The position numbers and the translations under genes were made by a program. A DNA stretch of 64,000 nt from the NCBI GenBank assembly GCA_965246715.1, contig CBDFFH010000034.1, positions 64,001 to 128,000 on the forward strand. Reading direction: 5' to 3'. The notes beneath the pieces are model-generated. The model saw only the letters and a program-made list of their open reading frames with translations, did not search any database and was not told the DNA's origin. Shown here piece by piece: positions 12,550-25,931 of the stretch (the first letter of the stretch is position 1; every line of letters starts with the position of its first letter). The DNA is from Chamaesiphon sp. Lineage in GTDB: Bacteria > Cyanobacteriota > Cyanobacteriia > Cyanobacteriales > Chamaesiphonaceae.

Positions 12550-12610
12550 TATTTACTACAAAAATGCGATCGATCCTCTGGTTACAAATCCTTAAATTGA
12601 ATGTTTTCTG

Positions 12611-12648
12611 AGGGCGGAAGCTATTTTTCCGGGTCGGATGGGTAGTAT
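12611..12648 (+). promoter_or_regulatory. Candidate WYL-regulator operator plus -10 box
   Basis: AGGGCGGAAGCTATTTTTCCGGG (CGGAA-N7-TTCCG) identical to 21187-21209; TAGTAT at 12643-12648. Confidence 0.7.
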
Positions 12649-12676
12649 AGACAGGAATACTACAATTGCCTAGCGG

Positions 12677-13663
12677 ATGAATGACCGTCCAATTCAAATA
12701 GAAAGGTTTTTGGAGATCGATCGCTTGCTACGTGGGCGAGAACGACAGACGAATGGGAGTCTGTCAGAACATTTGGAAGTAAGCGATCGAACTATTCGCA
12801 CCGATCTGAAGTGGATGCGAGATCGCTATTGTGCGCCTGTTGAATTTTGCACTCAAAGAGGCTGGCACTATACCGATCCGGATTGGCGATTGCCAACGAT
12901 CCCGTTACATAAGGGGGAGTTATTTGCGCTGACTCTGGGAGCGCGAATGCTGGAGGCTTTTCACGGGACGACTTATGCTTTGGAGTTGAGAGCGGCGATC
13001 TCCAGATTGAGCGAAAGATTGCCGCAACAGAGTTGGGTAGATTTACAACAATTAGCAGACAATCGAATTAGCTTTCGATCGGGCGTACAAATCGATTTAG
13101 ATCCGGCAATTTGGCAGCAATTGGAAGATGCCTGTCGGGAACAGAAATCGGTGCAGATGCGCTACTATTCACCGCAGAATAATGAGACTACCGATCGAGG
13201 ATTCGATCCCTACCTGCTGCATATTTATCGCGGTACGAATCCTTATGTCATCGGTTATTGTCATTTGCGATCGGATATGCGCTGGTTTCGGGTCGATCGA
13301 ATTCGGAGTTTAACGTTACTGCCAGCTAGTTTCACCCGCAATCCGACGTTCGATCCGCAACAGCATTTAGCCAATATTTTTCAATATGAGGTGGGTGGGA
13401 AGCCTCGCGCTGTGGTGATTTGGTTCGATCCAAAAACGGCACCATTTATCCGCGAACGCCGCTGGCATCATACCCAAGAGATTGAAGAGCACTCTGATGG
13501 TGCGCTGACGTTGAAGATGGTGGTACCTGGAACGAATGATGTGAAGCGATGGGTGTTGGGATATGGGGTAGGCGCGATCGTGCGGGAGCCGCCAGAGTTA
13601 GTTGATTTGGTGTGTAGGGAAATCGAAGGGATGATGAGTGGTTATCAAAATTTAACTGTATGA
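12677..13663 (+). CDS. HTH-WYL-WCX transcriptional regulator (CRISPR-associated)
   Basis: HTH LEVSDRTIRTDL; WYL domain DPYLL..YVIGYCHLR..RWFRVDRI; WCX WVLGYG..VREPPEL. Confidence 0.92.
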   Translation: MNDRPIQIERFLEIDRLLRGRERQTNGSLSEHLEVSDRTIRTDLKWMRDRYCAPVEFCTQRGWHYTDPDWRLPTIPLHKGELFALTLGARMLEAFHGTTYALELRAAISRLSERLPQQSWVDLQQLADNRISFRSGVQIDLDPAIWQQLEDACREQKSVQMRYYSPQNNETTDRGFDPYLLHIYRGTNPYVIGYCHLRSDMRWFRVDRIRSLTLLPASFTRNPTFDPQQHLANIFQYEVGGKPRAVVIWFDPKTAPFIRERRWHHTQEIEEHSDGALTLKMVVPGTNDVKRWVLGYGVGAIVREPPELVDLVCREIEGMMSGYQNLTV

Positions 13664-13697
13664 GAGGTGTATTCAGATGAAAGGAGTGTTAGCCTTG

Positions 13698-13805
13698 GTT
13701 TACTCATTGATTGCGCCACAAGGCGTTGAGCAATATATCGCGTATGCTGCTCGACAGTGTATATTCACTGTTTCATCCATTGACCGCCCCGAGGCGATTT
13801 TAAAA
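13698..13805 (+). CRISPR. Degenerate one-spacer mini-array (CRISPR-like regulatory RNA)
   Basis: 36-nt pseudo-repeat GTTTACTCATTGATTGCGCCACAAGGCGTTGAGCAA (13698-13733) keeps the GCC-N4-GGCG stem and TTGAGCA handle of the main repeat; 36-nt spacer 13734-13769; second pseudo-repeat GTTTCATCCATTGACCGCCCCGAGGCG from 13770. Confidence 0.85.
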
Positions 13806-13808
13806 AAT

Positions 13809-13857
13809 AGCAGCGTACGCTATATACATTGCAAATTTTATAGCTTGATGATATTCT
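13809..13857 (+). promoter_or_regulatory. Promoter of the small ORF/cas operon, with mini-array target and PAM
   Basis: -35 TTGCAA 13829-13834, 17-bp spacer, extended -10 TG-A-TATTCT (hexamer 13852-13857); minus-strand protospacer 13809-13826 with 5' ATG. Confidence 0.75.
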
Positions 13858-13893
13858 ACGATTGTCAGCTAATTTTGTGATGGGTAATTTCAT

Positions 13894-14145
13894 ATGGATG
13901 AGGATCTACAGCATATTTATTCTGAAATTTCAAGTATCAGAAAAGGATTTACCTCCTGTCAAGCAGAGCTAAATTCCTCCCAGGCAAGGCTAGACTCCTC
14001 TCGATCTCGATTAGATGAGGTTGAGTTGCAGATGAGAAATATTGAGGTTTCGCTAGATCGGATCGAATGTTTAGAAAGTAGGGCAGATGTGTATTCTGAT
14101 AGCGGAGATTCCCTCGCTGACTGGCTATGTTCATCAAAACAGTAA
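13894..14145 (+). CDS. Hypothetical 83-aa coiled-coil protein, first gene of the cas operon
   Basis: ORF directly after the predicted promoter, heptad pattern (LNSSQARLDSSRSRLDEVELQMRNIEVSLDRI), ends 8 nt before cas6 ATG. Confidence 0.55.
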   Translation: MDEDLQHIYSEISSIRKGFTSCQAELNSSQARLDSSRSRLDEVELQMRNIEVSLDRIECLESRADVYSDSGDSLADWLCSSKQ

Positions 14146-14153
14146 ATGAGACT

Positions 14154-14822
14154 ATGAATTATTTAGAAATTCAATACAAGCTATGTGGCAAAACCTTACC
14201 AGCCGATCATGGATATGCACTATATTCTGCTATCAAAAAACTTGTTCTAGAGAGGCATGATGTCTATAAAAACTTACTTATAGATGGCTCTTTACATACA
14301 GATATATTAATCTCTAGTATTTCAGGCATACCAGATCGCAATAGAACGATATATCTCAATAAATTCTCACGGTTGCGGTTGCGCTGTCCTAGTGATGAAG
14401 TTCAAGTTTGTTATCGACTATTGCAAAATCAAGTACTCGATATTCAGGGGCATTTAATTAGATTAATTCAGCCGCAATTAACCTTGCCAGAAGTGAGTGA
14501 AACTCTGAGATCGAGATTAGTAACTTTTAAGCTGAAAGATTGGGATGAGCGTGAAGCTCCCGCACATTTTCTCACATCTTGTCAACGAGCCTTAGATCGT
14601 TTGGAAATTCAAGCTAAACCCTTTATTGATAGCGATCGATCTGGAGATCTTGCCAAGCGATCGCTATGTATTCATGGCAAACATGTAATGGGTTACGGGG
14701 TAGTAATTGAGGGTTTAAACCCCGATGATTCGATTAAACTGCAATGTCTGGGTTTAGGTGGGCGTAAGCATTTTGGCTGTGGCTGGTTTTATCCCAGCAA
14801 AGAGGTAGCCGATGCCAACTAA
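14154..14822 (+). CDS. cas6: Type I-B (Myxan) Cas6 endoribonuclease
   Basis: LPADHGYALYSAI N-terminus; G-rich loop GLGGRKHFGCGWF; start at ATG 14154 (ORF track 14127). Confidence 0.92.
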   Translation: MNYLEIQYKLCGKTLPADHGYALYSAIKKLVLERHDVYKNLLIDGSLHTDILISSISGIPDRNRTIYLNKFSRLRLRCPSDEVQVCYRLLQNQVLDIQGHLIRLIQPQLTLPEVSETLRSRLVTFKLKDWDEREAPAHFLTSCQRALDRLEIQAKPFIDSDRSGDLAKRSLCIHGKHVMGYGVVIEGLNPDDSIKLQCLGLGGRKHFGCGWFYPSKEVADAN

Positions 14823-17097
14823 ATTACCTCGTCAGTTACAGACAAATATTTTATTAGCAAAATCATTCAATCCTAAAACAGAAACTTGGCAAGGTGCTTA
14901 TACACTGCTCGGACATACAGTAGCAGTTGTAAATGCGGTGACAGCGATCGTGAATCATTTGGACGATCGATTGATTTCTCAATTTGGCTTAAATTGCGAT
15001 CTATCTTACTTATTAGCAACTGTAAGATTGGCTGCATATTTACACGATTGGGGTAAGGCTAATAGTAATTTTCAGCAGGTAGTGAGAAAGCAGCGAAATC
15101 CACTTGTCAATCCTCAAATGATTCGTCATGAGGTCGCTTCTGTTTTACTCGCATGGGAATTTCGAGAATGGTTGAGCCAAGCTGATGGGGATTTTTATAT
15201 CGCATTAGCTGCGGCTGGTGGACATCATCTTAAATTGGGTGGACGCAGCGGTAAAAGAAACGACGAGTTGGGTGAGTTGAGATTGGGAACTGAGGATGAA
15301 GAACTTCACCTATATACCAGTCATTCTAATTTCAAAGCATTATTAAAATATGGAGTCAGATCGGTAGGATTACCCCTAAAAATCAAGCTGACTCGTAAAC
15401 CTGCAAATAGTTGGTCTGTTAGTGAATTAAAACATACTAAACGGGACGAAATTCGGGCAGAGTTCGATCGATGGAAACCCGAGCCAGTTTTACTTGCAGT
15501 CGTCAAATCTTTGTTGGTAGCTGGAGATGCGATCGGCTCGGCATTACCACCACAGAAAATCGATATCAAAGCCTGGATTGAGGGCGAACTCTCGCAAACT
15601 TTGACTGTTGAAAAGTTAGAACGAGTGATTGAATCTCGGCTCAAACCTGGGGAATCATTACGCCCATTTCAAATCGATTTAGGAGCATCGACAGCACGAG
15701 TTACCCTCGCTAGAGCGGGTTGCGGTACGGGTAAAACTGTTGGCGCGTATAACTGGGCAAAACGTCATGCGATCGATCGGAAGCTGATTTTCTGCTATCC
15801 CACTACTGGTACAAGTACCGAAGGCTTTATTGATTACGTTCACAACCAGTTAGATTCAGAATTACTTCACTCTCGCGCCAATGTCGATCTCGAAGAATTT
15901 AAGAAACAAGAAAAGGAAAAAGAATTGACTGAACTTGCGGCTACAGGCGAAGAAGTCGATGCGGGAGATGGTACGGAAAATGAGACGGCTAAAAAACTCG
16001 AATCATTTAAAGCTTGGGGCAAAGAATCGATCGTTTGTACCGTCGATACTGTTTTGGGATTACTCCAGTGTAACCGCCGCCCGATGTATTTTTTCCCCGT
16101 TATCTCACAAGCTGCGTTTGTTTTTGACGAAGTGCATTGCTATGATGATTCGCTGTTTGGTGCATTACTGCGATTTCTGGAAGTCGTCAAAGCACCGATT
16201 TTGCTGATGTCTGCATCGATTCAACCTTGGCAATTAGAGGCGATCGAAACAGCCGTAGGCGAACCCGTAAATATCATCCAGGGAGCGGCAGATTTGGAGC
16301 AGCAGCCCCGTTATCGCTTTGAATATGCCGATGAGCCAAATTGGGAACGAGTGGCTCAGGAGCTAGAAAATGGCGGGAAGGTGCTGTGGGTTTGCAATCA
16401 GGTGAAAACAGCAATTGGGGTGTATTTAGAGGCTAAGGCAAAAAATTTGAATGCGGTACTCTATCACAGTCGCTATCGCTATCAGGATCGAGTCGAACAT
16501 CATCGATCGGTAGTGGATGGATTTAAACAGGATAAGCCCATTCTGGCGATCGCGACGCAAGTAGCCGAGATGTCATTAGACTTATCCGCAACACTGCTTG
16601 TGTCCCAAATTGCCAATCCTGCGGGGCTGATTCAACGCTTGGGACGGTTGAATCGTCGCTACTGTGGACATGCCTTAGATGCGCTATTTTACCCCGATGG
16701 GGTGCCGGGATATCCCTATGATGAACAAACCGATCTCGCAGAAGGGTTGCGGTTAATCCAGTCATTCGAGGGAGAAGTCAATCAAGCACAACTGGCGGAA
16801 TGGTTGGAAAAATCGGATCTTGGCGGTAAACCTAACAAAGATTCGGTGCTACTCGATGGCAAATGGCGCACTTATCCGACATCGTTACGAGATGCGGGAT
16901 ATACAACCACCGTATTACTGGAAGAGGATTTAAAAATGATTAAATCTCAGTCGGCGGGATTAATTCCGCGTTATACAGTTCCGTTAATTGTGAATAAGCA
17001 AAAGCTGGATAAATGGGAACGATATAAATACTATCCGATCGCACCGACTGCGGAATGGATCTATTCACAAGAAATCGGCGCACGGGAGGTGAAATAG
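14812..17097 (+). CDS. cas3: Cas3 HD nuclease-helicase
   Basis: LHDWGK, HE and GHH HD motifs; AGCGTGKT, DEVH, MSAS, YHSR, ATQVAEMSLD, QRLGRLNR. Confidence 0.95.
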   Translation: MPTKLPRQLQTNILLAKSFNPKTETWQGAYTLLGHTVAVVNAVTAIVNHLDDRLISQFGLNCDLSYLLATVRLAAYLHDWGKANSNFQQVVRKQRNPLVNPQMIRHEVASVLLAWEFREWLSQADGDFYIALAAAGGHHLKLGGRSGKRNDELGELRLGTEDEELHLYTSHSNFKALLKYGVRSVGLPLKIKLTRKPANSWSVSELKHTKRDEIRAEFDRWKPEPVLLAVVKSLLVAGDAIGSALPPQKIDIKAWIEGELSQTLTVEKLERVIESRLKPGESLRPFQIDLGASTARVTLARAGCGTGKTVGAYNWAKRHAIDRKLIFCYPTTGTSTEGFIDYVHNQLDSELLHSRANVDLEEFKKQEKEKELTELAATGEEVDAGDGTENETAKKLESFKAWGKESIVCTVDTVLGLLQCNRRPMYFFPVISQAAFVFDEVHCYDDSLFGALLRFLEVVKAPILLMSASIQPWQLEAIETAVGEPVNIIQGAADLEQQPRYRFEYADEPNWERVAQELENGGKVLWVCNQVKTAIGVYLEAKAKNLNAVLYHSRYRYQDRVEHHRSVVDGFKQDKPILAIATQVAEMSLDLSATLLVSQIANPAGLIQRLGRLNRRYCGHALDALFYPDGVPGYPYDEQTDLAEGLRLIQSFEGEVNQAQLAEWLEKSDLGGKPNKDSVLLDGKWRTYPTSLRDAGYTTTVLLEEDLKMIKSQSAGLIPRYTVPLIVNKQKLDKWERYKYYPIAPTAEWIYSQEIGAREVK

Positions 17098-17100
17098 TTA

Positions 17101-18606
17101 ATGTCAGAACTTACATTGTCGCTACTCGATCCGAATACTTTATTACCCCATCGAGCGGGAATTGCCGGATTAGCACTAGCATTATCTGAGATCGATCCCC
17201 AGGATGCTCCATTAACTTGGAATGTCACTGAAGATGCTGTAAATCTAACTTGGGAAGGTACAGATAAAGATGCCATTCACTGGTTGCTAAATCAAACTTA
17301 TCAGATTCAGAATGGCTATCTCAATGTCCCCGCACTCAAACTCGATTTACAATCCCGATATACATTTACTGAAGGCGTAACGGTGACACTATTACAACAT
17401 AGCAAGCAGCGCAATCGCGAGAAAAATACCGTCTCTTTGAATTTTGCGATCGAAGATGGACAGCCAGAAATTAGATTAGAATTTCGTCCAGTGATTGACT
17501 GCTACTATACTCGCGACATTTCCGATGCTTTCGACAAAAAAGGTAACTTCAAAAAAGCGATCGCGCTTAAAGGTCATCATTTACCTGGATTAGTTGAATG
17601 TTTTGTCAACGGAGCGTATCAAGAATCACCAACTGGATTCCTATCGCTGCTATTTCTCCCCCTTGCTTGCAGCTATTACAAATTGCCTGGATTCCTCGCC
17701 GCCTTAGTAATTCCAGAAGTAATAAACCTGGTGGAATGGGTAGCACAAAGACAGGAATCTTCAGGGCAAATATTTCAACGGCTCAAAGCTCCCTACGCAG
17801 ACTTTCGATCGAGTGGTGCGGGAGAATCCGCTCTTCGCTTTCTATTGCGGCAAAAAGTTATCGCAGGCGCTAAATATCTACCGATTCGTTATTGCGAGGT
17901 GTATCAACTGGGGAAACAACCTTGGGATGGCAATCAATCTTATCTCAAACAAGCCGTATATCGCGTAGAGGTGAAGCCAGAAATTTTAGAGCTATATGAT
18001 ATTGCCGAACAACTATTCCCTGCGAAGATTCGCCTGACTGATAAAGGTGAAAGCTGGCTGGCAATTTCTAAAGTATTGCCCTGGATTTCGGAAAATTTAG
18101 TACGGGGGAAACCTTGGTATAGCGGATTTTATGAATTTTACAAACGCAACGATATCTACGAACGTAAAGGACTAGTGAAAATGACAAATCATCTCACATC
18201 AGACGAACAAATTTTATTTGATGCTATGCAAGGATCTTTTCGGATCTATTTACGTGGGCAAATTATTCAAGCTCAAAAGCAAGGACGTAAACCCGATTAT
18301 CCGCAAATAACCGATAAAGTAATCTATCGCTTGCAACGTCCGAGTACCCAACAAGAATTTGCCACAGCATTAGTCGATTTCTTGAGTCAGTTTCGGAGTA
18401 AAGCCGCTCGATCTGCTGGTAGCCAAATTTATGCGTGGATTCACCGCGAAGGTAACTGGAAACAGGCGAGAGATTTGGTATTACTGGCGATCGCAACTTA
18501 TGCCAGTAAGAAAGAAGATAGTCCCGATGGCGTGGAAATCTCGATCGAATCAAATCCCGATCTGGAAACTGAAAATTCACCAGAATTTGAGATGGATCTC
18601 TCATGA
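17101..18606 (+). CDS. cas8: Type I-B large subunit Cas8 (Cmx8/Cas8a1-like)
   Basis: HRAGIAGL N-terminal motif; located between cas3 and cas7. Confidence 0.85.
   Translation: MSELTLSLLDPNTLLPHRAGIAGLALALSEIDPQDAPLTWNVTEDAVNLTWEGTDKDAIHWLLNQTYQIQNGYLNVPALKLDLQSRYTFTEGVTVTLLQHSKQRNREKNTVSLNFAIEDGQPEIRLEFRPVIDCYYTRDISDAFDKKGNFKKAIALKGHHLPGLVECFVNGAYQESPTGFLSLLFLPLACSYYKLPGFLAALVIPEVINLVEWVAQRQESSGQIFQRLKAPYADFRSSGAGESALRFLLRQKVIAGAKYLPIRYCEVYQLGKQPWDGNQSYLKQAVYRVEVKPEILELYDIAEQLFPAKIRLTDKGESWLAISKVLPWISENLVRGKPWYSGFYEFYKRNDIYERKGLVKMTNHLTSDEQILFDAMQGSFRIYLRGQIIQAQKQGRKPDYPQITDKVIYRLQRPSTQQEFATALVDFLSQFRSKAARSAGSQIYAWIHREGNWKQARDLVLLAIATYASKKEDSPDGVEISIESNPDLETENSPEFEMDLS
18181..18606 (+). CDS. 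cas11: Probable Cas11 small subunit from an internal in-frame start in cas8 (141 aa)
   Basis: AAAGGA at 18166-18171 upstream of in-frame ATG 18181 (GTG 18175 also in frame); helical C-terminal domain. Confidence 0.6.
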   Translation: MTNHLTSDEQILFDAMQGSFRIYLRGQIIQAQKQGRKPDYPQITDKVIYRLQRPSTQQEFATALVDFLSQFRSKAARSAGSQIYAWIHREGNWKQARDLVLLAIATYASKKEDSPDGVEISIESNPDLETENSPEFEMDLS

Positions 18607-18622
18607 AAAATATTCACGACAT

Positions 18623-18705
18623 TGGTGCATTACTGCGGAGACTAACGCACTCTACAATCAACATTTATCTCGTAGGATGTGCAATCGCACCAGCGTAACG
18701 TACCA
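18623..18705. repeat. Degenerate REP-like pair in the cas8-cas7 gap
   Basis: TGGTGCATTAC...TAACGCACTCTAC and GTAGGATGTG...CGTAACGTACCA in inverted orientation with CTAC/GTAG feet. Confidence 0.45.
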
Positions 18706-18737
18706 TCATCAATCTTCAACCCTCAAACATAATTATC

Positions 18738-19598
18738 ATGTCTAAACATTTATTTGCGACCATTGTTACATCTACTGCTGTTGCTGCCAATAACCGAGGT
18801 GAAGGCGATGGTAGTACCTTATCTACCCTCCAAAAAATCACTCGCGGTAACGACCAATACACGACAATTAGTGCTGAAGCAATTCGCTGGGGGTTGCGAG
18901 AATATTTGCAAAATCATCATCCTGAATTAACTAATCGTACCTTCGATCCTGACAAGGATCTATACAACTTTAAAGATGAAGTATTTAGTGCCAAAAAATA
19001 TATCGATGACGATCTATTTGGGTTTATGGACGCAAAGAAGGGGGCAAATAATGAAAATGCTACTAAAAAGCGTCGGGGTGCATTAGAAGTAAGCCGTGCT
19101 ATGAGTCTCGATCCTTATTGGGGTGATATCGCCTTTGGATCTAAAGGTGGAGAAAAAAATAAAACTTCGATTCATAGCACCGAAATTCACTGTACTGCTT
19201 ATCAATATACGATCGCACTTACACCCGAAAGTTTACAAGATTCTCAACGTGCAGCATTAGTACTCGATGCTATTTCCGCCGTGCGTCATGTGGGGGGGAA
19301 TCATGCGCGATTCCTGTATGATTTCCGTCCAGAATCGATCGTTATTCGCGTAACTCAAGATCCTAGTCCGTGGATTATGGATAGTTTTAAACGGATGGGA
19401 GAATCGATCGGTTGTCCGAAATTATTGCGATTGGTTGAAGTTGGTGATGTCAATCCTCACGAACTAATTGTAGCTGGTGAAGTTGCCGATACATTATACG
19501 GTCAAAAGCTTGCAGAGGCGGGTGTAAAAGTATTGCGCGGAGTAAAAGAAGCGATTTCTACCGCTCAAGAATTTTTAAAAACCGAGGTGAAAGCATGA
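18738..19598 (+). CDS. cas7: Cas7 (DevR/Cst2 family)
   Basis: AANNRGEG, LQKI, ISAEAIRWGLR, DDDLFGFM, VGGNHARFLYDF. Confidence 0.93.
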   Translation: MSKHLFATIVTSTAVAANNRGEGDGSTLSTLQKITRGNDQYTTISAEAIRWGLREYLQNHHPELTNRTFDPDKDLYNFKDEVFSAKKYIDDDLFGFMDAKKGANNENATKKRRGALEVSRAMSLDPYWGDIAFGSKGGEKNKTSIHSTEIHCTAYQYTIALTPESLQDSQRAALVLDAISAVRHVGGNHARFLYDFRPESIVIRVTQDPSPWIMDSFKRMGESIGCPKLLRLVEVGDVNPHELIVAGEVADTLYGQKLAEAGVKVLRGVKEAISTAQEFLKTEVKA

Positions 19599-20326
19599 TG
19601 CAATTATATTTAGATTGCCCCTGTACGAGTTTTCCCCGCAGTTTTGCACGGGATTACAAGGAAACCTATCAATATCCGCCGCCATCGACAGTCTATGGAA
19701 TGCTATTATCGCTAGTCGGCGAGATCGATCTGATGGCACATATTGGTGTGAAAATTGCGATCGGGATTATCGGCGACAATCGGCCAATATCTAAAATCGT
19801 TCGCAAACAAAGGAACCATAAATACGATAACGGTGGAAGTGAACACAAGAAGCGAGTTGCTAAATATGGAGAACGAGTTTATCCATCACAGTTATTATCT
19901 AAACCCAATCATCAAGAATTACTTACCGATCTCCAATTCGTTGTCAGTATAAATTCTAGTGCAGAAACTGCTACGCTGAAATTAATCGATTCCCCAAAGG
20001 GGACGCTATGCGAACGCATTGCCGTCGCCTTAGCTACTCCCAGTCAAATTACCCGTTTTGGTGGGTTGAGTTTGGGCGAGTCTTGGTCGTTAATTAATGG
20101 TGTCAGAACATATCGCGAATCCGATGGCGATATTCGGTGGTTGGTGAAAGATAAGCGGGGTTTAATTGGTTTGCCAGTTTGGATCGATCGATCCACCACT
20201 CAGGGGACATTCCAACGATTTAGCATGGGTGAGTTTAGCGAAGATGCCTGGGTTTCTATCTCCCCGCCGATTTCAGTCACTCCCACCACATCACCTAAAG
20301 CTACTCGTAAACCGAAAGTCACCTGA
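19595..20326 (+). CDS. cas5: Cas5 (DevS/Cmx5 family)
   Basis: SFPRSFARDYKETY.YPPPSTVYGMLLSLVG, RFGGLSLGES; ATGA overlap with cas7. Confidence 0.92.
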   Translation: MMQLYLDCPCTSFPRSFARDYKETYQYPPPSTVYGMLLSLVGEIDLMAHIGVKIAIGIIGDNRPISKIVRKQRNHKYDNGGSEHKKRVAKYGERVYPSQLLSKPNHQELLTDLQFVVSINSSAETATLKLIDSPKGTLCERIAVALATPSQITRFGGLSLGESWSLINGVRTYRESDGDIRWLVKDKRGLIGLPVWIDRSTTQGTFQRFSMGEFSEDAWVSISPPISVTPTTSPKATRKPKVT

Positions 20327-20507
20327 AATTTTGCAAGGATCTCCGGCTGTGTCGGATCGATCGCCAGTCGAAATTCCTGTATCCGTTGCCAGCAATAAGT
20401 TTTAGCCTTTTTTATGACTTCGGAGATCCTTAGAAATAGGAATAGTGTAAGGAGAAGAGTGAGTCTCAAGAGTGCAATTATCATTGATGCCGTTAGGCGT
20501 TGAGCAC
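20322..20507 (+). CRISPR. Leader-like region plus solo CRISPR repeat
   Basis: GTGCAATTATCATTGATGCCGTTAGGCGTTGAGCAC at 20472-20507 (36 nt; 3' 23 nt match the array repeat except one base); upstream TGCAAGGATCTC..CTGTGTCG resembles the start of the main leader (23219-23241). Confidence 0.8.
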
Positions 20508-21140: not shown

Positions 21141-21186
21141 AAAATCCCCGACTTCTTGAAGAAGTCGGGGATTTTTTCTTTTTTCT
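21141..21186 (+). terminator. Perfect hairpin with U-tract (terminator/REP-like)
   Basis: AAAATCCCCGACTTCTT-G-AAGAAGTCGGGGATTTT followed by T-runs. Confidence 0.75.
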
Positions 21187-21224
21187 AGGGCGGAAGCTAT
21201 TTTTCCGGGGTGGGTGAGTAAGGT
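21187..21224 (+). promoter_or_regulatory. Second copy of candidate WYL operator plus -10 box upstream of cas4-cas1
   Basis: AGGGCGGAAGCTATTTTTCCGGG 21187-21209; TAAGGT 21219-21224 at the same offset as in the WYL promoter. Confidence 0.7.
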
Positions 21225-21256
21225 AGAAGTATAAGTCTTTACTCACCACTTTTAGT

Positions 21257-22909
21257 ATGTACGCTCTCGCGCCTGACTCCAGTACGATTCGTGTTTCTGC
21301 ACTTCATGCGCTCGCATATTGTCCACGATTATTCTATCTCGAAGAAGTCGAAGAACTCTATACTCAAGATGCTGCCGTATTTGCAGGTAGAAGGCTCCAT
21401 GCGGAACTAGAAAAACAAGAAGATGAGGATTGGGAAGAATTATTTCTCGAAAGTACCGAACTTGGCATTAGAGGGAGAGTTGACGCGCTCCGTACTCGTG
21501 ATGGACTGACTATTCCCTACGAACATAAGCGGGGTAAATGTCATCGAGATAAAGACAAGCAGCCACTAGCATGGGAGAGCGATCGCATCCAAATTCTCGC
21601 TTATGCTTGCTTGTTAGAATCAGCACTTGGGATTGCGATCGAGGAAGGTAGAATTCGCTATCATGCCGATAATGTTTTAATCCATATTCCCGTTGATGAT
21701 GCGGGGCGAAAATTAGTCAAAGAGGCGATCGAAAGAGCCTTTCACCTGCGGACTTCGCCCAGTCGTCCGCCGATTACTGATAACGAGCGGTTGTGCGCGA
21801 GGTGTTCGCTTGCACCTGTCTGTTTGCCTGAAGAAGCGCGGTTAAATCACGATCGCGATTGGCAGCCTGTGCGGTTATTTCCTGAAGATGATACTCGCAC
21901 GATCTTACATATTCTCGAACCTGGTACTAGTGTTGGCAAAAAGGGCGAACAGATTAAAATCTCTCGGAAAAACCAACCGATCGAAACTATTGCCGCAACA
22001 CATGTCGGGCAGGTAGTTCTACATAGTTATTCACAGATTTCGACCCAGGCTTTATATTTTTGTGCAGCGCAAGATATTGGGGTGCATTTGGTTTCTGGCG
22101 GTGGACGTTATCTCGGTAGTTTCGATCCTCGTGGGGGCAGTATTCAGCGACGAATTGGGCAATATCGATCGCTTACTAATCCCGAATTTTGTCTGAGTCT
22201 AGCCCAGAAGTTAGTAACTTGTCGCGGACAGGGACAGCGGAAGTTGTTGATGCGCTATCAACGAGGTTTGAAGAGTGTACCGGATGAGTTGACGCAGGCA
22301 ATCAATCAGATGAAGAAGGTGCTCAAAGAGATTCCGACGGTTAAATCTTTGGAGTCACTTTTGGGTTATGAGGGGAATTTAGCTGCTTTGTATTTTGGTT
22401 GTCTAACTTATATTATTAACGATCGAGTCTCGCCGAGTTTACATTTCGATCGGCGCAATCGTCGTCCCCCCAAGGATCGCTTTAATGCGCTGTTGAGTTT
22501 TGGTTATGCGCTTCTGCTCAAGGATGTGATGAATAGCATCCTGATGGTGGGATTAGAACCCGCTTTGGGCTTTTATCATCAGCCGCGTACTCAGGCTCCA
22601 CCGTTGGCGTTAGATTTGATGGAAATTTTTCGGGTGCCGTTGGTAGATGCGATCGTGTTGAGTTCGATTAATCGCTTGCAGTGGGATGTGAGTGCTGATT
22701 TCACGATCTTGGGGCAGCAGGTGTGGTTGAGCGATGTGGGGAAAAAGAAGTTTGTCAAGCTGTATGAGAGTCGCAAGACGGAGACTTACAAACATCCGGT
22801 GCTGGATTATTCTCTCAGTTATCGGCGATTGTTGGAGTTGGAGGTGCGATTGCTGGAAAAAGAGTGGAATGGCGAAGGTGAGGCGTTTGCAAAGTTAATC
22901 ATTCGGTAA
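21257..22909 (+). CDS. cas1: Cas4-Cas1 fusion (Myxan type)
   Basis: Cas4: YCPR, GRVD, EHKRG, QILAY, CARCSLAPVC; Cas1: GYEG, RNRRPPKDRFNALLSFGY, GFYHQP, DLMEIFR. Confidence 0.93.
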   Translation: MYALAPDSSTIRVSALHALAYCPRLFYLEEVEELYTQDAAVFAGRRLHAELEKQEDEDWEELFLESTELGIRGRVDALRTRDGLTIPYEHKRGKCHRDKDKQPLAWESDRIQILAYACLLESALGIAIEEGRIRYHADNVLIHIPVDDAGRKLVKEAIERAFHLRTSPSRPPITDNERLCARCSLAPVCLPEEARLNHDRDWQPVRLFPEDDTRTILHILEPGTSVGKKGEQIKISRKNQPIETIAATHVGQVVLHSYSQISTQALYFCAAQDIGVHLVSGGGRYLGSFDPRGGSIQRRIGQYRSLTNPEFCLSLAQKLVTCRGQGQRKLLMRYQRGLKSVPDELTQAINQMKKVLKEIPTVKSLESLLGYEGNLAALYFGCLTYIINDRVSPSLHFDRRNRRPPKDRFNALLSFGYALLLKDVMNSILMVGLEPALGFYHQPRTQAPPLALDLMEIFRVPLVDAIVLSSINRLQWDVSADFTILGQQVWLSDVGKKKFVKLYESRKTETYKHPVLDYSLSYRRLLELEVRLLEKEWNGEGEAFAKLIIR

Positions 22910-22916
22910 GATAATC

Positions 22917-23210
22917 ATGGCAGAAATTAGGCATTGGTATTTGGTTTGTTATGATATTCGCTGTCCGAAGCGGTGGCGGAAGGCGTATAAGTTATTGGGT
23001 GGTTATGGGGAGCGGGTGCAATATTCGATTTTTCGATGTCGATTATCACAACGCGATCGGGAAAAATTAAGATGGGAGTTAGAACAGATTCTCACGGCTG
23101 ATGATAGTCTGCTGTTGGCGGGTTTGTGTCATCGCTGTGAGGAGCGGGTGCAAAAGTGCAATCGCTCTGGGGTGTGGGCGGAGAATCCACCGAGTTTTCA
23201 GGTAATCTAG
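22917..23210 (+). CDS. cas2: Cas2
   Basis: YLVCYDI, YGERVQYSIFRC. Confidence 0.95.
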   Translation: MAEIRHWYLVCYDIRCPKRWRKAYKLLGGYGERVQYSIFRCRLSQRDREKLRWELEQILTADDSLLLAGLCHRCEERVQKCNRSGVWAENPPSFQVI

Positions 23211-23480
23211 CCTGAAAGTGCAAGGATCTCTGTCTGTGTCGATCGAGTTTATGTTTAATTTTGCTCGATCGATGATGGTGTCTGGGTTTGCGGGTCGATC
23301 GTCTGTCGGGAGGTGCTTGCACGATTGCTAAGTCTAGTGATGGGTACAGTTTTTACCGATCGATCTCGATTTACAAAAGTGTCGTTTCAGCCTGTCTGGG
23401 CATACTCGATCGATCTTTGTGGTAGGATGCTTGCACAACCACTCAGGAGCCTCTTCCCCATAAGGGTTCTAGCTTCCGCC
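23211..23480 (+). promoter_or_regulatory. CRISPR leader
   Basis: Non-coding region between cas2 and the first repeat; TGCAAGGATCTC...GAGGTGCTTGCA...GGATGCTTGCA motifs; degenerate repeat lies at the far end of the array. Confidence 0.8.
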
Positions 23481-25931
23481 GTGACTATACCTGTGATGCC
23501 GTAAGGCGTTGAGCACTTTATCTGCTTGAAGTTATTTTTTGGGTAATGCGATGTGACTATACCTGTGATGCCGTAAGGCGTTGAGCACTTTCCAGCCGCA
23601 GAGGCTAGCGTCCCCTCAGCACTCGTGACTATACCTGTGATGCCGTAAGGCGTTGAGCACTGAACGCGATCTCCTAAGAGAGCGGGTGAATTCTGGTGAC
23701 TATACCTGTGATGCCGTAAGGCGTTGAGCACTAAGTCTTGCCATTCTTGACCTTGGTCGTACCTTCGTGACTATACCTGTGATGCCGTAAGGCGTTGAGC
23801 ACAGTGACATTTATTTTTTCTTGGTTGGTGTATGCAGGTGACTATACCTGTGATGCCGTAAGGCGTTGAGCACTGATTGGATCTGCGAGTGTCCGCAAGA
23901 GTGTCGAGTGACTATACCTGTGATGCCGTAAGGCGTTGAGCACCTCGGCAAAATGCGCCATTTCGTGAAAAACATCAGGTGACTATACCTGTGATGCCGT
24001 AAGGCGTTGAGCACGTTGAGATAGGATCTCAATTCCAGTTCGACAATTCGTGACTATACCTGTGATGCCGTAAGGCGTTGAGCACTCGATGTTAATCGTG
24101 CCAAATGCCACTTTTAACGCGTGACTATACCTGTGATGCCGTAAGGCGTTGAGCACTAGACCGCTGGTTAGCATGATGCGCAATATGAGCGTGACTATAC
24201 CTGTGATGCCGTAAGGCGTTGAGCACATGAGTAATTGTTGAGTTAGTTTAATCTGTCTAAGTGTGACTATACCTGTGATGCCGTAAGGCGTTGAGCACCT
24301 AGATCGATATCGCCAATTACCCCCTTCTTACTGATGTGACTATACCTGTGATGCCGTAAGGCGTTGAGCACACACGACGGCTAGTTTTATTTATGGGGAC
24401 GTGACGTGACTATACCTGTGATGCCGTAAGGCGTTGAGCACTATTCTTTGGATTCGGGATCGTCGCTTCCATCCTGTGACTATACCTGTGATGCCGTAAG
24501 GCGTTGAGCACAAGAACGCGATCGTGATTCTCTCCCCTACTATGGTGGTGACTATACCTGTGATGCCGTAAGGCGTTGAGCACCTTATTTTAATGCGACC
24601 CGTGGGTTTAAAATCACGTGACTATACCTGTGATGCCGTAAGGCGTTGAGCACCAAGTGCCGAGGGCACGCTATCATCTGCGGCTGGAGTGACTATACCT
24701 GTGATGCCGTAAGGCGTTGAGCACAGATCCACGTAATTTGCTTGATGAAGCGACACGGCAGTGACTATACCTGTGATGCCGTAAGGCGTTGAGCACGTAG
24801 GTAGCTAAACCAGCCATCATCATCCCAATAGTGACTATACCTGTGATGCCGTAAGGCGTTGAGCACGACTAATAAATAATGGCTAGCGATCGGCTCCAGC
24901 TGTGACTATACCTGTGATGCCGTAAGGCGTTGAGCACCCCAGAAAGATCGCCATGGAGAAATTCCATCGAGGTGACTATACCTGTGATGCCGTAAGGCGT
25001 TGAGCACCGGATGAGTGGAGAAAAGGAGCGTCACCGTGGATGTGACTATACCTGTGATGCCGTAAGGCGTTGAGCACCGGATGAGTGGAGAAAAGGAGCG
25101 TCACCGTGGATGTGACTATACCTGTGATGCCGTAAGGCGTTGAGCACCGGCGCGTGTTTATTAACCTCGCGGATAATTACTGGTGACTATACCTGTGATG
25201 CCGTAAGGCGTTGAGCACAGACTGTCGATGCGCAAGGCTACACCACTTGTCGGTGACTATACCTGTGATGCCGTAAGGCGTTGAGCACACTGAACTCTGC
25301 GATCGATACGGACTAGCGAGCTGGTGACTATACCTGTGATGCCGTAAGGCGTTGAGCACGATAGAGATTTGGAAAAAAGCTTTAAGGATAGATTACGAGT
25401 GACTATACCTGTGATGCCGTAAGGCGTTGAGCACACCAGTAGGCAGATTTGGGAAACCTTCGATCGGTGTGACTATACCTGTGATGCCGTAAGGCGTTGA
25501 GCACAAGGCTTAGGTGACATCGCCTGAAATATCGTTCAAGGTGACTATACCTGTGATGCCGTAAGGCGTTGAGCACGTATTAGCGGTATCGATCGCTTGT
25601 TGTAAAGCAAGATGTGACTATACCTGTGATGCCGTAAGGCGTTGAGCACATTTATTCGATGGGTGAATAAATCTAGTATGCAGGTGACTATACCTGTGAT
25701 GCCGTAAGGCGTTGAGCACACAAGTTAGGTATCGACCCTAAAGGTCTACTCAACGTGACTATACCTGTGATGCCGTAGGGCGTTGAGCACTTAACAGTGG
25801 CGATATTGTCTGCAAAGCAGGGTTGTGACTATACCTGTGATGCCGTAAGGCGTTGAGCACTTCTCAAGTAATAACTGTCGTCTTTGAGCTGCTTTGTGAC
25901 TATACCTGTGATACCGTAAAGCGTTGAGCGC
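23481..25931 (+). CRISPR. CRISPR array, 35 repeats / 34 spacers (34-39 nt)
   Basis: Repeat GTGACTATACCTGTGATGCCGTAAGGCGTTGAGCAC (36 nt); variant at 25755; degenerate terminal repeat 25896-25931; counted by hand. Confidence 0.98.

Follow-up and report, generated by a model that had tools for sequence, protein, structure and literature searches.

A conserved small-protein family behind predicted CRISPR guides in type I-B and type I-D loci of cyanobacteria

An 83-codon open reading frame (ORF) lies just upstream of cas6 in a type I-B CRISPR locus of Chamaesiphon sp., within a 64,000-nucleotide stretch of contig CBDFFH010000034.1 (the window). We found that this ORF, judged by its substitution pattern, is a conserved gene under purifying selection (dN/dS of about 0.2) and not a chance frame. 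The CRISPR-like guide and the PAM-flanked target upstream of it are, by comparison among relatives, also real. The ORF is likely a cargo repressed by Cascade and not a Cas subunit. Our preferred reading, for and against which we see about equal weight, is that a small helical protein sits behind the guide, that Cascade likely keeps the gene and the cas operon down, and that the product would inhibit growth or a developmental step once Cascade is lost, titrated, or blocked.

The window contains an intact Myxan-kind type I-B system, comprising a WYL gene, cas6, cas3, cas8a1, cas7/devR, cas5/devS, a Uma2 gene, cas4-cas1, cas2, and a 34-repeat array (Table 1). In the cas8a1/cas7/cas5 block, models TIGR03485 and TIGR02585 matched above their cutoffs, and TIGR02586 scored 105.7 against a cutoff of 111.5. 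The ORF begins with ATG and its stop codon ends at 14145. The sequence confirmed the original prediction of a Ser- and acid-rich heptad ORF between the targeted site and cas6: 16 Ser and 17 Asp/Glu are present among 83 residues, there are two hydrophobic heptad registers, and the stop codon is followed after 8 nt by the cas6 ATG at 14154, the start that homologues use.

Table 1. Features of the cassette and of the surrounding CRISPR locus, in window coordinates
Feature	Coordinates	Strand	Evidence or remark
HTH-WYL-WCX transcriptional regulator, upstream of the cassette	12677..13663	+	Pfam WYL 4.9e-20, WCX 1.7e-18
67-codon ATG frame through the mini-array (possibly incidental)	13677..13880	+	
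First degenerate mini-array repeat, predicted to supply the 5' handle of the guide	13698..13733	+	20/36 identical to array repeat, 11/12 at 3' end; hairpin kept
36-nt spacer of the CRISPR-like RNA; guide is the first 18 nt	13734..13769	+	
Degenerate repeat 2, hairpin predicted to be kept, 3' handle lost	13770..13805	+	12/36 identities with the register fixed; less secure than repeat 1
Protospacer (13826 to 13809) and ATG PAM (13829 to 13827)	13809..13829	-	Mismatches at guide positions 6 and 12
Predicted promoter, -35 TTGCAA, 17 nt, -10 TATTCT	13829..13857	+	1-base overlap with PAM; score 8/12
83-aa protein with a heptad helix (about residues 3-62) and a conserved C-terminal tail (about 59-78); its cyanobacterial family is unnamed	13894..14145	+	
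cas6 (type I-MYXAN Cmx6)	14154..14822	+	TIGR02807, 158 bits, above cutoff
cas3	14812..17097	+	TIGR01587 and TIGR01596, both above cutoffs
cas8a1/cmx1, cas7/devR, cas5/devS: Cascade predicted to carry the guide	17101..20326	+	Reading frames intact
cas4-cas1 fusion, cas2, main CRISPR array (34 repeats, 23481-25860)	21257..25860	+	

Elsewhere in the locus, a lone repeat between cas5 and the Uma2 gene (20472-20507) is identical to the array repeat at 28 of 36 positions, and the sequence following it has zero ATG-PAM targets in the genome. A 48-nt repeat, 79% identical, is found upstream of WYL (12604-12651) and of cas4-cas1 (21180-21227) and is a candidate for a shared operator or promoter of the two. 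The main array carries two identical spacers in succession near 25000-25100, two spacers that are 88% alike, and a spacer (number 30) with an 18-nt match on contig C25.

The mini-array upstream of the ORF is degenerate, and its guide partly matches a PAM-flanked site, as in the CrePA/CreTA class. Pairing between the spacer and its target (13809-13826, minus strand) covers every non-sixth position through 17, behind an ATG PAM. This PAM is compatible with the A-Y-G preferred by a Myxan I-B Cascade, which flips every sixth base (PMC11096372). The target is unique, with 1 ATG-PAM match of at least 11 nt in the 6.1-Mb genome and 0 among 200 shuffles. It lies about 325 nt upstream of cas6, with the ORF alone, on the same strand as the cas operon, in between, and we found no terminator-like sites in 13500-14300. 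In the closest relative, L002, one spacer change is paired with a change in the target, and three other relatives (L004, L011, and L012) have different guides, each with a matching target at the same place. A mini-array guide of this kind in a type I-F1 system is reported to repress without cutting (10.1101/2023.03.03.530964).

The predicted promoter is 65 nt upstream of the ORF and adjoins the guide target, and its -35, its spacing, and a TAnnnT -10 are kept in L002 and L004. A consensus promoter scan did not list this site (TTGCAA-17-TATTCT, 13829-13857) and listed another plus-strand site at 13780-13808, which abuts the opposite end of the target. The ribosome-binding site of the ORF is weak (-3.7 kcal/mol), and those of cas6, cas7, cas4-cas1, cas2, and WYL are as weak or weaker. 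Because weak sites are common to these five genes of the locus, the lack of a strong Shine-Dalgarno sequence, which had earlier raised the suspicion that the ORF might be untranslated, is no argument against its translation.

Relative to L002, the ORF has a dN/dS of 0.18 (0.028/0.158; Fisher P = 0.005), and the L011/L012 pair gave 0.22 (0.089/0.401). Seven other homologue pairs ranged from 0.25 to 0.40, and one further pair was identical. The indel that separates the ORF from its L002 homologue is the in-frame loss of one heptad, and the conserved tail residues are encoded by several synonymous codons. Members of the family are 61 to 150 aa long and consist of a long helix of variable length followed by a conserved tail with the consensus L-x-x-x-V-[DN]-P-[YF]-S-x-[DS]-G-D-[SA]-x-[AC]-[DN]. 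Among 67 distinct tails (from 82 sequences), the L, the S, and the Y/F were each found in 66, the G in 63, and the last-position D/N in all 67. A structure model of one family member (not the window ORF) has a high-confidence helix at residues 3-51, followed by a flexible tail with a short helix at its end. We do not claim a likeness of the tail to phosphopantetheine acceptor tags, Gre/DksA tips, or the YabA layout; the Ser that phosphopantetheine acceptor tags need is Ala in 28 of the 67 tails.

We used several collections to place the family. A single-sequence search with the ORF returned 2 candidates, none significant, and the ESM Atlas held no match of at least 0.9 for the ORF or for the family member P0043. 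Reading upstream of cas6 in relatives revealed four homologues in the same slot. Profile searches yielded 22 proteins, then 12 more short representatives, and then 18 further matches, from several cyanobacterial families. Of the 52 profile representatives, 12 short ones were fetched and all have the tail, 2 had been identified before, and the other 38, mainly long coiled-coil proteins with multiple stretches, were left out. Cyanobacterial genomes were the ones searched for the family, and weak matches without the tail were dropped (3 of 5 inspected in one search and 4 of 13 in another). Among named records, those nearest to the ORF are from Chamaesiphon, and a strong match was present in 5 of 27 Chamaesiphon genomes, always at this position. 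The window's own genome has no paralogue and no host protein carrying the tail. Pattern searches gave 227 matches in metagenome contigs and 19 in viral contigs, none confirmed, and a pattern for the module DNA gave 0 matches in the metagenome contigs; phage and plasmid collections, queried with P0043 only, gave no match. A family tree of 48 rows and 74 columns left 19 of 45 inner branches open and is silent on how many recruitments took place and in what order. That the ORF is a chance or decayed frame without function is barely credible. The null single-sequence search, the low Atlas recognition, and one frameshifted copy would fit such a frame, but the profile searches find the family, under purifying selection, in several cyanobacterial families, and the dN/dS values largely refute it.

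The family has no name in the libraries searched: Pfam, NCBIfam, PHROGs, PADLOC, and the PDB sequences gave generic coiled-coil matches only, and the matches to PADLOC defense models were to single coiled-coil members. We saw no catalytic, enzymatic, or membrane domain in the libraries searched. A KilAC domain was specifically absent, with no Pfam match at E values up to 0.1 and no consistent PHROG match. None of the Cas family models of Pfam, NCBIfam, and PADLOC matched the ORF.

We surveyed guides in 21 loci for which DNA was available, namely, 6 Myxan I-B loci, 8 type I-D loci, and 7 loci without nearby cas genes. A PAM-flanked guide target was present upstream of the ORF in 6/6 I-B loci and 8/8 I-D loci, each with the PAM of its subtype, and in 0/7 non-CRISPR loci. 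Under a strict test, the count was 10/14 (5/6 I-B and 5/8 I-D), with the target 83 to 100 nt upstream; the count of 14/14 needed relaxed rules in four loci, allowing a bulge at position 6 (L109 and L108) or a target 409 nt (L057) or 591 nt (L130) upstream. With these relaxed rules (bulge at position 6, 800-nt flank), 0 of 100 shuffles matched for each of the four added loci, and the non-CRISPR count was still 0/7. The L109 and L108 guides fit only with crRNA base 6 bulged, at 15/15 and 13/15 scored positions, respectively, which suggests that a one-base deletion may be tolerated at the flipped position 6 of the guide. The I-D targets are flanked by GTT or GTC and agree with the GTN PAM reported for an archaeal I-D system (PMC7544194). 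Because near-identical pairs occur among the 14 guide-bearing loci, these reduce to about 10 independent guides.

In all six Myxan I-B copies, the gene is directly before cas6. The eight I-D copies have it right after cas3' and before cas10d. It is directly before cas10d in L126, MntA-HepT lies between in five loci (L024, L031, L127, L128, and L130), and YhcG lies between in two (L057 and L108); these names come from model matches for L031, L057, and L108 and from likeness of frames for the other loci. From its position behind the small ORF and ahead of cas10d, the MntA-HepT pair or YhcG/DUF1016 nuclease is predicted to be controlled by that guide as well. The original prediction that the ORF is a CRISPR-repressed cargo, the first gene behind the targeted site, is well founded in these targets at 14/14 CRISPR-linked loci, the promoter itself being a predicted one. 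The prediction had named a lack of conserved homologues as a point that would count against it; we found homologues, purifying selection, and guide targets upstream in every CRISPR-linked locus examined. A guide at this place is also expected from cas autorepression alone, so its presence does not prove that repression exists on account of the ORF. In L109, the copy carries a frameshift although the cas genes next to it look intact, so the gene looks dispensable.

The slot before cas6 was then compared across 64 Myxan cas6 loci (L109 was found separately and is outside the 64; L084 was left out of the guide count, its match being a repeated spacer in a true array). In 18 of the 64, WYL is within 70 nt of cas6, with no guide and no cassette. 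Another 11 have a guide and target, which are accompanied by this family in 5, by an unrelated HTH-like ORF of 71 to 103 aa in 3, and by no ORF in 3. Thus, the cassette is optional, and the same slot holds an unrelated small gene or none. On a metagenome contig (run X3, one contig, depth 4.9), the cassette is absent and the WYL-cas6 gap is 86 nt versus 577 nt; 9 of 271 bases separate the WYL piece of that contig from the window. At synonymous sites, the ORF is closer to its L002 homologue than cas6 or WYL is (P = 0.004 and 2e-6, respectively), and the 230-nt noncoding part, identical at 219 of 230 positions, is far closer than the synonymous sites of the flanking genes. The closeness of the ORF at synonymous sites fits a recent exchange of the cassette.

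The HTH-like ORFs form a second small-protein family in the guide-targeted slot (L009:977-1288, plus strand; L063:2213-2428, minus strand; L071:2221-2448, minus strand), with weak HTH matches, an "IL....W..I" pattern common to their C termini, and, toward the N terminus, a QLS[IL] stretch that may resemble a sliding-clamp binding motif. This second family is a candidate for a second CRISPR-repressed effector.

These surveys bear on whether the ORF product acts on the CRISPR machinery itself. The ORF had been correctly described as no recognized Cas family, since it has only sub-cutoff coiled-coil matches in Pfam and NCBIfam. The accompanying suggestion of an accessory Cascade subunit was not supported: the family occurs in 5 of the 64 Myxan cas6 loci and also in I-D and outside CRISPR. 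A related possibility is that the product is a Cas modulator or anti-CRISPR decoy, induced on Cascade failure, that binds Cas6, Cas3, Cascade, or an incoming Acr and restores or sharpens immunity. Acidic helical peptides are common protein-binding modules, and the ORF is first in the predicted cas transcript, 8 nt from cas6. DevI is reported to weakly and positively autoregulate its operon (10.1101/2023.07.26.550624). Against a modulator are its rarity among Myxan cas6 loci, its place beside two cas6 clades that are about 37% identical, its sharing with I-D, whose Cascade is very different, and at least 18 copies with no cas gene nearby. We consider this possibility improbable.

The copies outside CRISPR loci speak to what kind of cargo this would be. 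At least 18 such copies were inspected, and no cas gene was present in the 3 to 18 kb read around each. The seven that entered the guide survey are all intact and all without a guide, which means that the family can be carried without Cascade. These guide-less intact copies make an acutely lethal toxin less likely. In four of the seven loci, the small ORF follows a gene of about 290 aa, X (L112:8341-9219; further X loci are L151-L180), which occurs in 38 of 141 genomes of another cyanobacterial family and is absent from the window's genome. Among 30 X loci that were fetched, 13 have the small ORF behind X, 2 have the two fused (L178 and L180, fusions that may be deletion products), and 15 have X alone. 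Most of the paired loci adjoin a gene that we take to be hemC. An X homologue on a plasmid (NC_019731.1) lies between integrase genes, and another non-CRISPR copy of the small ORF is near a phage-like replication gene (L141). X is helical (model pLDDT 80) and had no match among Pfam, NCBIfam, PHROG, or PDB sequences or by Foldseek; its best VIA hit, with Z of 5.6, was to a designed helical protein and is uninformative. We set aside a toxin-antitoxin pairing of X with the ORF, as X stands alone in 15 of 30 loci and is broken beside an intact small ORF in 3 of 13. Because the usual neighbor can be broken while the ORF stays intact, no obligatory antitoxin is apparent.

The guide might instead autorepress the cas operon, as in CreR, and the ORF might be a non-toxic, co-regulated helper, a host-derived regulator or adaptor that tunes physiology (e.g., a repair, replication, or stress pathway) without arrest. 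The intact guide-less copies at 7/7 non-CRISPR loci would suit such a helper, as would its stable chromosomal pairing with the 290-aa gene in 13 of the 30 fetched loci, with 2 more fused, and the 3 of 11 guide-bearing cas6 loci without the ORF indicate that the guide works without cargo. A helper leaves unexplained, however, why the family comes first after about 10 unrelated guides belonging to two subtypes, where toxin-antitoxin and nuclease genes share the slot. We regard a helper as somewhat unlikely, though deserving of consideration.

It could also be that the RNA or the act of translation matters and the protein is secondary, either with a toxic RNA in the manner of CreT or with a translated leader, cleaved by Cas6, that links read-through from WYL to cas6. 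Published CreT toxins have mini-ORFs, with the RNA as the toxin. A frame of at least 67 codons runs through the mini-array in 7 of 9 loci, compared with 1 to 3% of rough shuffles each. This ATG frame has 67 to 93 codons and begins just after the WYL stop codon (window, L004, L011, L012, L063, L071, and L072); it is cut to 22 codons in L002 and is absent in L009. Many homologues carry it in the reading frame of the effector ORF, and of 61 database proteins, 20 are annotated as repeat read-through fusions of this sort. Against a role for RNA or leader, conservation is at the amino acid level with synonymous variation, the ORF has 65 to 110 codons and not 2 to 5, and the leader frame is broken in L002. 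We judge it very improbable. A further repeat-like hairpin was observed in the leader about 96 nt before cas6 in L011 and L012 and also in L065, L069, L071, and L083; it is possibly a Cas6 cleavage site on the cas mRNA itself.

We return to the reading in which a protein cargo is held down by Cascade. The mini-array would be transcribed and the guide cut out by Cas6, as the kept hairpin and 3' handle suggest. Cascade would then pair over 18 nt at the -35 and block RNA polymerase without licensing Cas3, as with other mini-arrays; the pairing is seen in the sequence, and the repression is a prediction. On loss or inhibition of Cascade, the ORF would be derepressed together with cas6-cas5. The heptad helix likely oligomerizes and would present several copies of the tail to a host protein, and a host partner is likelier than a Cas partner because I-B, I-D, and CRISPR-free loci all make use of one family. 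As with CreP and DevI, a dose-dependent arrest would likely follow, penalizing carriers of anti-CRISPRs or loss of cas genes. More tentatively, we suggest a cyanobacterium-specific "tripwire" family, in which a coiled-coil scaffold shows a DPYSxDGD peptide to one conserved host protein and which has been repeatedly captured from non-CRISPR loci into I-B and I-D, with a new guide each time, so that two unrelated Cascades would arm the same arrest switch. Such a tripwire may carry a second lock, the mini-array read-through frame cut by Cas6.

CRISPR-repressed protein toxins known so far come from one family in type I-F. The cyanobacterial family described here, so far unannotated, is a second protein family for which guide control is predicted, and it occurs in two subtypes behind about 10 independent guides. 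Its guide-free copies are natural controls for asking directly whether one and the same protein acts as a tripwire behind a guide and as an ordinary gene elsewhere. The near-invariant tail offers a handle for identifying the host target. The family also matters for editing tools built on cyanobacterial I-B and I-D systems, in which deleting cas genes or expressing an Acr could carry a cost when such a cassette is present.

The closest known system is that of CreP, which arrests division on Cascade inhibition in the type I-F system of Acinetobacter baylyi. As reported (10.1101/2024.01.05.574328), CrePA shares with our module two degenerate repeats, a guide of about 18 nt to a PAM-flanked site upstream of a small ORF within the cas locus, and cargo relatives outside CRISPR loci. 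In contrast, CreP is a phage-derived KilAC domain found in I-F only, and here we observed an unrelated helix-plus-tail protein of cyanobacteria in both I-B (Myxan) and I-D, for which searches of phage and plasmid collections with P0043 gave no match. The dev operon of Myxococcus xanthus has as its first gene the 40-aa DevI; loss of DevTRS derepresses the operon, overproduction of DevI blocks sporulation, and most Myxococcus isolates are without devI, according to two reports (10.1101/2023.07.26.550624, PMC8730458). The window resembles it in having a Myxan-type I-B system (with model matches to DevR, DevS, and Cas8a1) and a small, optional first gene of the operon. The two are likened by position and not by sequence, and they differ in that DevI has 40 aa versus 83, that an explicit mini-array guide and target are visible here, and that our family also occurs in I-D. 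By these analogies, the module would work like CrePA or DevI yet is not CreP, and it is only a candidate member of the toxin class.

Mini-arrays before cas6 (I-B) and before cas10d (I-D) are already published (10.1101/2023.03.10.532045, 10.1101/2023.03.03.530964). CreR, as described there, shares the mini-array upstream of cas6 or cas10d, the target in a promoter region (here a predicted one), the PAM, and the mismatches at positions 6 and 12. It differs in that CreR is defined by the absence of a toxin gene, whereas here a conserved protein gene lies between the target and the cas gene. CRISIS (10.1101/2024.12.27.630466) likewise involves guide-repressed promoters of non-cas genes in CRISPR loci, genes that also occur away from CRISPR, and I-B-regulated Abi-like genes are mentioned; the examples considered here are enzymes or multigene systems, unlike the ORF protein, which has no enzymatic domain. 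CreTA of haloarchaeal I-B also places a guide-repressed element between cas genes, but CreT is an RNA with a mini-ORF, and here an 83-codon protein gene has a dN/dS of about 0.2. The word "cyanobacteria" occurs zero times in the searched text of the main CreTA, CrePA, CreR, and mini-array papers, and a ribosome profiling study of Synechocystis reports other CRISPR-linked small ORFs and not this one (10.64898/2025.12.20.695498). Such loci might be listed in the tables that accompany the mini-array and CRISIS papers. The logic of a guide-repressed cargo is already known from these systems; the family, and its deployment in two CRISPR subtypes, did not turn up in the papers searched.
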